DNA from: a virus
Strand: one strand, 5' to 3'
Virus genome (UHGV): UHGV-0179848
Length of the DNA stretch: 39,611 bases
Notes under the pieces: model-generated
Seen by the model: the letters and a program-made list of their open reading frames with translations, nothing else
Databases searched by the model: none
What the model was told of the DNA's origin: nothing
Position numbers and translations under genes: made by a program
Shown here: piece by piece, positions 513-1,480 of the stretch
Layout: each line of letters begins with the position of its first letter
How positions within the stretch are numbered: the first letter of the stretch is position 1

Positions 513-1250
513 TCATTCACTCTCTTTCAAACCAGTTTTAACTGTTTGTGGTTTTGGGTAAGGCTGGACTTTGAATAGCTTTGTGTTGAGGCGTTTTCTG
601 GCCCTCTTGTTCAGAAACCGGATGTAACGAAACTGTCGGAACTTATGCACACTGGCTCTGTCGATATTAGCCCTCAGATGTTCACCTCGTTGTCCGCCTC
701 GTTTAATGGCATTCCTGCAAATCTCGTGATACCACTCGCCATCAAGTTCATAGAATATTGTTTCATGGCTGCCTACATAATCAAAATTGCTTGCCTGATA
801 CACGACACCAAGACAGCCACAACGCTCATCTGCAAACGACTGAACCCACTGTACCTGCGGATAAAGCTGCCTGATTAGCTTGAGCGCGTAACTGATTGCC
901 CTTGATTCGGAATTTCTCGGCATACAGTCATGCATCCATAGCCGGTTCAGCTCCATATATTCTCGGTTCTGCGTACCCGTTACGACGCGTGCACCACTGT
1001 TTGGGTTAAGGGCGTAACCCCATTGCATTACGCCAACAAGTTCCCGTTCTGAAAATATGCCCAGATGAAGGTAGGAGTTATTTACGAAACGGTGGCTGTA
1101 ATGTTTATTGACGATAACCAGTCTGGCCAGCCAGCAACTTATTGTCTCAACCCGCAACTCACGGGAACCATAACCAACGATATTGTCGTTATAGCGAATA
1201 AGTTCAGGCGTGCTGATGATACGGGATGTGACTTGCTTTCTGTTCCCCAC
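513..1250 (-). CDS. mom: Mom-like DNA modification protein (anti-restriction adenine modification)
   Basis: 245-aa ORF at the extreme right end, transcribed toward the terminus, 5' end overlapping the com ORF exactly as com-mom in Mu; family assigned by position and size, not by sequence recall. Confidence 0.75.
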
Positions 1251-1404
1251 GACAGGATTTCCTTGTGTATGTGGGGTGCTCTGTGGCGCTCGGAGATGTG
1301 ATTTGATTGAGGGTTTTACAGCGCGGACATTTTACTTCCAGATAACTGAAACTGGCCCGTGCCAGTAGCTTATTGCAGTGTCGGCACCGTATGTTTCGAT
1401 ACAT
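1204..1404 (-). CDS. com: Com zinc-finger translational activator of mom
   Basis: [19 protein letters not shown]...[11 protein letters not shown]...TEHP closely parallels Mu Com (MKSIRCKNCNKLL...IEIRCPRCK...CEHP); start taken at the internal Met of the 1204-1449 ORF; overlaps mom start. Confidence 0.85.
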
Positions 1405-1480
1405 GGCCGCATAACCTCCTGCTTTGTTGTTGATGCCTTTCTCATGCAATCGATCGACAAAAACGATCGATTCGATTTGT
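1405..1480 (-). promoter_or_regulatory. Candidate Pmom-type regulatory region with clustered Dam (GATC) sites
   Basis: Two GATC 13 bp apart (1452-1455, 1465-1468) in TCGATCGACAAAAACGATCGATTCGAT about 50-60 bp upstream of com start; two more GATC near 1577 and 1590. Confidence 0.45.

Follow-up and report, generated by a model that had tools for sequence, protein, structure and literature searches.

The stretch of DNA analyzed (UHGV virus genome UHGV-0179848; 39,611 nucleotides, hereafter "the window") carries, on the minus strand, two overlapping genes, mom (513..1250; 245 aa, GTG start) and com (1204..1404; 66 aa), which are the last genes before the right end (at about position 385) of a complete prophage inserted in zraS. 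Positions 1 to 384 are zraS sequence, present in about 5,400 E. coli genomes; in E. coli genomes that have the prophage at other loci, the match specific to it sets in at 384/385. The initial annotation was therefore correct in calling the mom-like gene terminal. The right end (attR, 385..512) starts with TATAGCGCGGCG and contains, between the mom stop codon and the prophage end, three copies of the repeat TTTGATAC (402-409, 424-431 and 459-466). These repeats have counterparts at the prophage left end in another locus (L003), and are presumed to be transposase-binding sites.

The prophage is of the Mu-like transposable type, with matches to the Pfam families Mu-transpos_C, HTH_Tnp_Mu_1, Phage-MuB_C and Resolvase (i.e., the MuA, MuB and Gin domains), and a near-identical prophage in RefSeq has the full Mu-like gene order, including Mu-type head and tail genes. 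The window ends about 210 bp short of the prophage left end. Insertion sites differ among strains (zraS, bcsA and other loci), and the com region was found in about 4% of the complete genomes of E. coli, STEC strains being numerous among the carriers. Sp18 of E. coli O157:H7 Sakai and related STEC prophages have a com region that is 96-100% identical, and according to the literature the genes for Mom and its regulators occupy the equivalent position in Sp18 (PMC3299994); the present copy differs in being located in zraS and in the allele of a 16-nt segment that includes the -10 element. The RefSeq names of these genes are [quoted passage not shown] and "Com family". A terminator-like hairpin (1705..1676) separates com-mom from upstream minus-strand transcription. 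A search with ARAGORN found no tRNA or tmRNA gene, and an Rfam search gave no relevant match.

Mom Retains the Fold and Activity Residues of Mu Mom

The mom product matched the Pfam Mom family, PF25680, over the entire profile (1-202/202) with an E value of 3e-77 (259 bits, with a cut-off of 27.1), and PHROG 1384 with an E value of 9e-84, whereas there was no matching model in NCBIfam. It is 78% identical to Mu Mom, with a C-terminal extension of 12 residues, and matched the crystal structure of Mom (PDB 8BV8) with an E value of 2e-123. For the initial annotation, absence of the Mom fold from a structural model of the 245-aa protein would have counted against the proposal, but the fold was present: when an AF2 model (pLDDT 88.8) was compared with known structures using Foldseek, the best match was 8bv8_A (E = 4e-37, TM 0.84/0.92, rmsd 2.0 Å), the next being ordinary GNATs with TM values of about 0.4.

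The helix-turn-helix-like insertion specific to Mom is present, with 28 of its 35 residues identical to those in Mu Mom. Activity of Mu Mom, which carries out Gly-tRNA(Gly)-dependent N6-carbamoylmethylation at SAS sites, requires W48, H58, Y59, R111, S124, D149, R151, Y159 and W181 (PMC13219725). All of these mutagenesis-tested residues are kept, as W40, H50, Y51, R103, S116, D141, R143, Y151 and W173. Sequence and model thus show an enzyme with the GNAT fold, the insertion specific to Mu Mom and all known activity residues, predicted to modify adenine N6 in a tRNA(Gly)-dependent manner.

Com and the Translational Control of mom

The mechanical open reading frame for com (1449..1204; TTG start, 81 aa) is longer than the gene, the true start being the ATG at 1404, which is preceded by AGGAGG (1420..1415) and is also the start of the RefSeq coding sequence in an identical prophage. 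The product is predicted to be a CCCC zinc-ribbon translational activator: it matched PF10122 (Zn_ribbon_Com) with an E value of 3e-12 (46 bits, with a cut-off of 22.9), is 47% identical to Mu Com, and contains the motif CxxC-N15-CxxC, in agreement with the family pattern of CxxC-N15/16-CxxC in a protein of about 60 aa. The four cysteines (C7, C10, C26 and C29) were invariant in an alignment of ten Com proteins. The com and mom genes overlap by 47 nt (1250..1204), compared with 50 nt in Mu, so that the description of a Com-like zinc finger overlapping the start of a Mom-like gene was borne out by both family matches and by the gene arrangement.

The target motif of Mu Com has been defined by SELEX (PMC6483171). 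Within codons 38-44 of com, the sequence GAGCGCCACAGAGCACC (1275..1291, minus strand) fits the pattern GAGNNCC(N2-3)GAGNNCC and is presumed to be the RNA motif bound by Com; GCCNNNGAGCAYCCCAC was kept in all ten enterobacterial cassettes examined. Just 3' of this motif (CC-N2-3-GAG), as expected of a Com-regulated layout, RNA folding predicted a translation-inhibition hairpin (1245..1276, minus strand), in which CCCCAC (1276..1271) pairs with GUGGGG (1250..1245) and would bury both the GUG start codon of mom and its AAGGA Shine-Dalgarno sequence (1264..1260). The start-codon stem was also predicted in 10/10 cassettes examined, and the folds of the window and of Mu shared a two-hairpin layout, although the stem of the Com hairpin was weaker than that of Mu (2-3 pairs versus 4). 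No covariation was found in the ten cassettes, where the arms of the hairpin were invariant; as the codons leave neither arm free to vary, covariation cannot speak for the RNA structure here.

An OxyR-Type Box with Two GATC Sites Lies Upstream of com

Two GATC sites were found between positions 513 and 1480 (1452-1455 and 1465-1468), and three more beyond 1480 (at 1576, 1587 and 1622). The numbers themselves carry little weight: five GATC sites in 174 bp arose somewhere in 32% of random placements, and the probability of at least two in the 114-bp intergenic region was 0.06. We therefore dropped clustering as evidence in itself and relied instead on the exact motif and its conservation. The two proximal sites are part of the palindrome ATCGATCG-N7-CGATCGAT (1449..1471), which occurs once in the window, against 0.04 occurrences expected even with two mismatches allowed. 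Read on the minus strand (1468 and 1455), they lie within ATCGTTTTTGTCGAT with the 13-bp spacing also seen in Mu, agn43 and gtr, and the palindrome includes what would be the second of two OxyR half-sites (1467..1453). For both gtr and agn43, a 13-bp GATC pair inside a single OxyR half-site has been described, at which methylation blocks OxyR (PMC2909390).

Located 7 bp upstream of this half-site is a putative half-site 1, ATCAATTAAACAAAT (1475..1489, minus strand), identified by consensus scoring. Its match to the OxyR consensus is modest (6/10), and there is no counterpart in it of the third GATC found at this point in Mu and agn43. The 37-mer 1489..1453 scored 13/20 against the OxyR consensus, compared with 13 for Mu and 14 for agn43, a crude count that is supportive only. 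Eight of the ten best OxyR-consensus positions in the whole window fell in 1453..1520, with the box ranked top, and a maximum of 13 or more was reached in composition-matched shuffles with a probability of about 0.012. The box is 21/26 identical to the OxyR/Dam site of agn43 and 19/26 identical to that of Mu.

In four of the loci compared (L005, L006, L007 and L009), the two GATC sites precede the com ATG by 64 and 51 bp, and in three others (L008, L209 and L213) they are at equivalent positions. Of the 13 enterobacterial cassette loci examined, all but one (L010), which retained a single GATC, had a 13-bp pair upstream of com, whereas the non-enterobacterial com loci amenable to parsing (about 34 of 77) showed no such pair. 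The position of the pair relative to the com ATG was fixed despite unrelated upstream neighbors and different payload genes. By contrast, the three distal GATC sites are in a divergent pseudogene, beside a plus-strand promoter-like site, and a sister prophage keeps the com region without them. On this sequence comparison, only the two sites at 1452 and 1465 belong to the com-mom module, and the two to four upstream sites of the initial annotation are reduced to the pair within an OxyR-type box, 51-85 bp upstream of the com ATG.

The Box Overlaps a Putative Promoter with a Degenerate -10 Element

Only one promoter-like element was recognized between the OxyR box and com, i.e., an inferred -35 element TTGTCG (1459..1454) separated by a 19-bp spacer from a -10 element CATCAA (1435..1430), all on the minus strand (1430..1459). 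The box overlaps its -35 region. Sister alleles differ in the 16-nt segment that includes the -10 element, which is CATCAA here, TATCAA in L005-type alleles and TATCAT in L091, L111 and L190, with position weight matrix (PWM) scores of -0.2, 3.1 and 8.7, respectively; Pmom of Mu scores 4.3. CATCAA was the commonest allele in our sample of loci. A search upstream of com found no sigma-70 promoter of any strength, and in the interval between the box and the com Shine-Dalgarno sequence not one hexamer combines A as its second with T as its sixth base. We infer that the promoter of the CATCAA allele is weak or activator-dependent, and because its -10 element is degenerate, expression of the modification by this allele is uncertain.

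A candidate for an activator of com-mom is the 140-aa Mor/C-family late activator encoded at 28973..29395 on the minus strand ("Mor transcription activator family" in RefSeq), which shares only 40% identity with Mu C. A late-promoter motif, CTGAWATYCCGCAAARCC, with a -10 element TAYGCT placed 30 nt after CCGCAAA, was derived from the phage's lys and I promoters. In the window, this motif occurred only at 21037 and 28959, i.e., at lys and I, with no third site and none upstream of com, so that dependence of com-mom on C is unsupported. Nor was TTAT-N6-ATAA found at com.

Three other candidate elements were considered. The 10-mer CCGCCCTGAA, present at 1531..1522 and in PI, is not suitably spaced from any -10 element to be an activator site, and lies outside the region conserved in L005. 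A possible promoter upstream of the box (ATGACT-17-TATCAA, 1513..1485) is weak, and is not kept in the Salmonella or Citrobacter cassettes. Finally, the -10 element found seven nt after the last GATC in Salmonella, Citrobacter and P2-like cassettes (TATACT/TATCAT) is replaced in the window by TGAGAA.

Comparison with Mu, agn43 and Related Cassettes

In Mu, com and mom (Mu_52/Mu_53, AF083977) form the same gene pair, in the same order and with the same type of overlap, and are likewise the last genes before attR. Mu also has a GUG start codon within a CCCAC/GUGGG hairpin preceded by a CC-N3-GAG motif, and a box of the form AATCGATCG...GATCGATT with GATC sites 13 bp apart. However, Mu has three GATC sites rather than two, lying 78, 91 and 109 bp from the com ATG rather than 51 and 64 bp, so that the box here is 27 bp closer. 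Missing from the present locus, which has no room for it, is a segment of roughly 25-27 bp that in Mu contains the C-binding site (TTATGCCCCAATAA), and as a consequence the box overlaps the -35 region. The Mu-type layout, with the box upstream of a C site and promoter, was thus not found here. The upstream neighbor also differs, being gin in Mu and a divergent pseudogene with an esterase cargo cassette here. The initial proposal that the locus mirrors the Dam-dependent control of mom in Mu holds for the box itself, which resembles those of Mu and agn43, but not for the layout, in which the box is nearer to com, overlaps the promoter and lacks the intervening C site and promoter spacer.

The box of agn43 (flu) shares with the present one the core ATCGATCGTTT.T.TCGATCGAT as well as the 13-bp GATC spacing, and in both cases the OxyR site overlaps or adjoins the core promoter, so that OxyR would work through occlusion (PMC2909390). 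It differs, however, in having three GATC sites and a strong sigma-70 promoter (TTGTCC-17-TAGAAT; PWM score 12.1), with the box downstream of the start site rather than over the -35 region of a weak promoter.

The same Com family and start-codon hairpin are found in com-methyltransferase cassettes, including those of FluMu (hin1523), Pnm1 (nma1821), B3 (ORF47/48) and P2-like prophages (PMC3299994). In place of Mom, these cassettes have a DNA methyltransferase (C5 or N6/N4) as their payload, and those of the Enterobacterales also carry the GATC box.

Discussion

We consider it very probable that a Mu-like transposable prophage of E. coli, of the Sp18 type, has at this locus its com-mom operon, orthologous to the anti-restriction system of Mu and under OxyR/Dam control. 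By analogy with Mu, agn43 and gtr, the box would be methylated in a Dam+ host, excluding OxyR and leaving com-mom transcribable late in lytic growth. An unmethylated box would instead bind OxyR, and because it overlaps the -35 region and spacer of the only promoter-like element, the block to RNA polymerase would be direct, as in agn43 or gtr and unlike in Mu, in which OxyR is reported to bind upstream of the C activator site. Com, acting as its Mu counterpart does, would bind its motif and open the hairpin, allowing translation of mom. According to the mechanism described for Mu Mom (PMC13219725), Mom would then move glycine from Gly-tRNA(Gly) to adenine N6 in duplex DNA (at SAS in Mu), and rearrangement of the adduct to N6-carbamoylmethyl-adenine would render the packaged DNA resistant to many restriction enzymes.

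It is conceivable, although we think it unlikely, that the module is intact in coding but transcriptionally crippled in this allele, yielding little or no Mom and unmodified phage DNA. The low score of CATCAA relative to the other -10 alleles, the absence of any A2/T6 hexamer before the com Shine-Dalgarno sequence and of a C-type site all point that way, and since mom expression is toxic in Mu (PMC3378877), down-mutations could be selected. However, both open reading frames are intact, as are their Shine-Dalgarno sequences, the hairpin and the Com motif, the allele is the commonest among the sampled loci, the protein cluster at 98% identity comprises 1,318 sequences, and the modest score of Mu Pmom does not prevent it from working with an activator. 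A departure in chemistry is also rather improbable, i.e., that this Mom acts in another target context or with another acyl donor than Mu Mom and protects against a different spectrum of restriction enzymes. An overall divergence of 22%, the C-terminal extension and changes at 7 of 35 positions in the insertion thought to contact DNA leave room for this, and because of those seven changes the target context may differ from SAS; yet every mutagenesis-tested residue is kept, the fold superposes closely on 8BV8, and there is no sign of a change of donor.

Least credible of all, in our estimation, is that com-mom is not switched by Dam and OxyR through the GATC pair, which would instead be a chance occurrence in an AT-rich intergenic region or an element serving SeqA or the divergent plus-strand gene (as a momP2-like promoter). 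GATC counts alone were not significant, a G+C content of 37% in the region inflates matches to the AT-rich OxyR consensus, and 1519 is the start of a divergent open reading frame, near which a weak promoter-like site lies on the plus strand (1477-1503). Against this, the exact palindrome is unique in the window, its distance to the com ATG is constant across cassettes with unrelated neighbors and different payloads, its OxyR score was rarely reached by shuffled sequences, and the agn43 site to which it is so similar has been validated.

Textbook accounts of Mu cover Mom and Com as well as the control of mom by Dam and OxyR, and the chemistry and structure of Mom have recently been solved. The module described here is, as the initial annotation had recognized, already known, being named both in RefSeq and in the literature. 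Its practical bearing is that virions from prophages with this com region may carry restriction-resistant DNA, which affects transfer between strains. Phase variation, to our knowledge, has not been described for mom.

What is new here is modest and concerns regulation, in that the OxyR box lies on the promoter and not upstream of an activator site, and that the -10 element varies among alleles. We tentatively suggest, as a possibility less likely than not, that in enterobacterial phages an OxyR box with two or three GATC sites, a weak promoter, com and the start-codon hairpin make up a portable cassette, swapped between payloads (mom, C5 or N6/N4 methyltransferase) at a junction just after GUGGGGAAC, and that in its short version occlusion of the promoter by OxyR has replaced the activator-site layout of Mu. 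E. coli alleles that are identical elsewhere are hypervariable in the 16-nt segment following the box, which yields the -10 series TATCAT / TATCAA / CATCAA; if this suggestion is true, the series would mean that a toxic modification enzyme is tuned in a lineage-specific manner, or silenced. The combination of a box on the promoter with a varying -10 element would be a simple system in which to study the tuning of a toxic late function by phages.

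Prophage structure and the com-mom genes

The first 384 bp of the window are E. coli zraS, found in ~5,400 of 5,426 complete genomes, and a Mu-like transposable prophage occupies the window from ~385 onward, with MuA, MuB and a Gin-type resolvase recognized by Pfam. In strain STEC2018-607, a near-identical prophage is inserted in bcsA rather than zraS, and its RefSeq annotation follows the complete gene order of Mu, from repressor through Mu transposase, AAA ATPase (MuB homologue), Gam, gp16 and a Mor-family activator to genes for lysis, head and tail, an invertible tail-fibre region, a recombinase and, lastly, Com and "protein mom". 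Further copies adjoin unrelated host genes, as expected of a transposing phage. Among complete E. coli genomes, 215, some of them O157:H7 strains, carry the com region with 96-100% identity; since the single Mu-like prophage of O157 Sakai is Sp18 (PMC2669165), the window prophage very probably belongs to the Sp18 type.

On the minus strand, mom (1250..513) has a GTG start and encodes 245 aa, and com (1404..1204) encodes 66 aa. An ORF finder extended com to a TTG at 1449, but we took ATG 1404 as the start because AGGAGG lies 10 nt upstream and RefSeq uses the same codon. The initial annotation had described a Com-like zinc finger gene overlapping a terminal Mom-like gene. This was borne out: the genes overlap by 47 nt, Com matches PF10122, and mom is truly terminal, because just an end region with three TTTGATAC repeats separates its stop codon from the prophage end. 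The same repeats occur at the left end of a sister prophage, three being present at each prophage end. In the window (385..470) and comparison locus L003 (160..185 and 39380..39610), the right end begins TATAGCG, with TA where Mu has TG, and the left end begins TGTAACC. The bcsA insertion carries a clear duplication of only 4 bp (CTCG), whereas Mu duplicates 5 bp.

The Mom protein

The window protein matched Pfam Mom (E 3e-77), the PHROG "Mom-like DNA modification protein" (E 9e-84) and the crystal structure of Mu Mom, 8BV8 (E 2e-123), and was 78% identical to Mu Mom across 233 residues. Structural modelling had been named beforehand as a test that could refute the Mom fold. An AlphaFold2 model built with 40 homologues as input (pLDDT 88.8, pTM 0.84) superposed on 8bv8_A with TM scores of 0.84/0.92 and an rmsd of 2.0 Å; the next-best structural matches were generic GNAT acetyltransferases (TM ~0.4). 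The protein thus passed this structural test, and the com-mom identification was correct. Com is 47% identical to its Mu counterpart.

Using Gly-tRNA(Gly) as donor, Mu Mom attaches glycine to adenine N6 at SAS sites in duplex DNA, and the adduct rearranges to N6-carbamoylmethyl-adenine (PMC13219725). R111, S124, D149 and R151 are required for activity, as is a helix-turn-helix-like insertion (residues 175-209), and changes at W48, H58, Y59, Y159 or W181 lower it drastically (PMC13219725). After correction for numbering in that study, which equals that of the 231-aa GenBank Mu Mom plus 10, all of these activity-relevant residues were found to be kept in the window protein, and 28 of the 35 residues of the insertion are identical. 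The protein also carries 12 additional residues at its C-terminus.

Com and its RNA target

When Com was aligned with its Salmonella, Yersinia, Mu and P2-like homologues, four cysteines and the stretch A-x-E-H-P-T proved invariant. The codons of the latter (GCC-ACA-GAG-CAC-CCC-AC), judged from the sequence, double as an RNA element. SELEX with Mu Com yielded GAGNNCC(N2-3)GAGNNCC, the bound core, CC(N2-3)GAG, lying in a small hairpin beside a translation-inhibition structure (PMC6483171). The window has a match, GAG-CG-CC-ACA-GAG-CA-CC (1291..1275, minus), directly followed 3' by CCCCAC (1276..1271), which is predicted by RNA folding to pair with GUGGGG (1250..1245) at the mom start codon. The predicted two-hairpin layout is alike in the window and Mu, although the stem of the small Com hairpin is weaker in the window. 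GCCNNNGAGCAYCCCAC, a loop bearing the Shine-Dalgarno sequence and GUGGG were present in all 10 enterobacterial cassettes examined. Support for an RNA structure at the mom start thus comes from conservation and not covariation, since both arms of the start-codon hairpin are fixed by coding.

GATC sites and a putative OxyR box

The region of 114 bp upstream of com contains GATCs at 1452 and 1465; others lie farther out (1576, 1587 and 1622), and none occurs between 104 and 1451. By count statistics, the number of GATCs upstream of com is unremarkable. However, the proximal pair forms the element ATCGATCG-TTTTTGT-CGATCGAT, which occurs once in the window (0.04 expected). Mu carries AATCGATCGGTAATACAGATCGATTA at its second and third GATCs, within the stretch used by OxyR to repress mom in the absence of methylation (summarized in PMC3378877). 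The window element is identical to this Mu sequence at 19 of 26 positions, and to the agn43 OxyR site, TATCGATCGTTTATATCGATCGATAA, at 21 of 26. The 13-bp GATC spacing is shared with P22 gtr, where GATC pairs each lie inside one OxyR half-site and methylation abolishes OxyR binding (PMC2909390). By a crude match count against ATAGnTnnnAnCTAT-N7-ATAGnTnnnAnCTAT (maximum 20), 1489..1453 scored 13, compared with 13 for the Mu site and 14 for agn43; this score was reached in ~1.2% of composition-matched shuffles of the intergenic region, and eight of the ten best-scoring positions of the whole window fell within 1453..1520. The sequence therefore supports the Dam link proposed originally, but the sites number two, not "two to four".

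The candidate com promoter

No good sigma-70 promoter was found upstream of com. The best-placed element, putatively a promoter, is TTGTCG (1459..1454, minus), a 19-bp spacer and CATCAA (1435..1430), 25 nt from the ATG (28 nt in Mu). Sister alleles, otherwise identical, have TATCAA or TATCAT instead; PWM scores were -0.2 for CATCAA, 3.1 for TATCAA, 8.7 for TATCAT and 4.3 for Mu Pmom. The degenerate -10 casts doubt on mom expression from this allele. Comparison of window 1430..1451 with six E. coli loci (L005, L091, L111, L123, L187 and L190) showed that a 16-nt segment immediately following the OxyR box, which holds this -10 series, is hypervariable between otherwise nearly identical flanks.

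Given this promoter, the GATCs would lie at about -31 and -44 and putative half-site 2 over the -35 region, so that OxyR may directly occlude polymerase at com. Mu has 40 bp between the last GATC and the -10 (TAAGAT), carrying a C-binding dyad centred at -43.5 (PMC2582627), whereas in the window the com ATG follows the last GATC by only 47 bp. In cassettes from Salmonella and Citrobacter and in P2-like ones, TATACT or TATCAT stands 7 nt past the last GATC, and there too the GATC box overlaps the promoter. The suggestion that the module mirrors Mu's mom control therefore failed as regards layout, the box being nearer com, on the candidate promoter.

This phage's activator shares only 40% identity with Mu C. 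Both the protease gene (I) and the lysozyme gene are preceded by regions (21011..21054 and 28933..28976, minus) containing CTGAWATYCCGCAAARCC, with TAYGCT 12 nt later; these are likely late promoters with a site for the C-type activator. The motif common to the lys and I promoters was absent at com, and the position of Mu's P promoter yielded no third copy.

Neighbouring sequences

A frameshifted divergent ORF (1519..1839, plus), whose first 77 residues match PHROG 26524, is a pseudogene in RefSeq. Within it is a good sigma-70-like site, TTGACT-16-TAGGAT (1597..1624, plus). The GATC at 1622 falls in the -10 of this site, and those at 1576 and 1587 slightly upstream of it; ATAAAATGATCATTTTAT is a perfect 18-bp palindrome (1580..1597). 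A terminator-shaped hairpin of 13 pairs and a T-run (1667..1705, minus), upstream of com, would shield com-mom from read-through. It lies downstream of a cargo cassette (2335..4912, minus) located between com and the Gin recombinase (5003..5563). The cassette encodes a 693-aa protein with sialate O-acetylesterase (SASA) and DUF6645 domains (NanS-p-like), then DUF1378 and DUF826. This set, here within a Mu-like prophage, is typical of Stx/lambdoid prophage late regions.

The 5.4-kb early region 29880..35294 (Gam to gp16 homologues) contains no GATC (18.5-20.8 expected by composition, P ~1e-8). Mu likewise has a GATC-free early stretch of 4.0 kb (3883..7927), plus one of 4.2 kb across the G segment.

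Payload exchange behind com

Four com loci of other genomes (L005, L006, L007 and L009) are short-type cassettes whose 13-bp GATC pair precedes the com ATG by 64 and 51 bp, just as the window's does, and L008, L209 and L213 have it at equivalent positions. The payload, i.e., the gene after com, is mom in L005 and L209, a C5 methyltransferase in L006 and L213, and an N6/N4 methyltransferase in the P2-like prophages L007 and L009. In L211, which also has an N6/N4 methyltransferase, the pair is farther from the ATG; L010 retains only one GATC. The Mu-type cassettes (Mu, L014 and L030) have three GATCs spaced 18-19 and 13 bp, ~27 bp farther from com, and no 13-bp pair was seen among the ~34 of 77 parsable com loci from outside the enterobacteria, such as those of Acinetobacter and Neisseria. 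L005 shares the window's sequence no farther upstream than 111 bp from the com ATG and lacks the distal GATCs (1576, 1587 and 1622), which, on this comparison, are not part of the module.

Com, the GATC box and the start-codon hairpin precede other payloads in L006 (2819..4025), L213 (1501..2710), L007 (2488..3421) and L211 (1501..2194). A C5 DNA methyltransferase takes the position of mom in the same Mu-like prophage type, and in P2-like prophages the N6/N4 methyltransferase lies beside hok. Sequences with swapped payloads part ways just past GUGGGGAAC.

Earlier literature records Mom and its regulators in Sp18-type phages and notes that methyltransferases may follow com instead (PMC3299994). 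Because the module is also already named in RefSeq, its novelty is low; what is new is the box overlapping the candidate promoter, the allelic -10 series and the common junction of the payload swaps.
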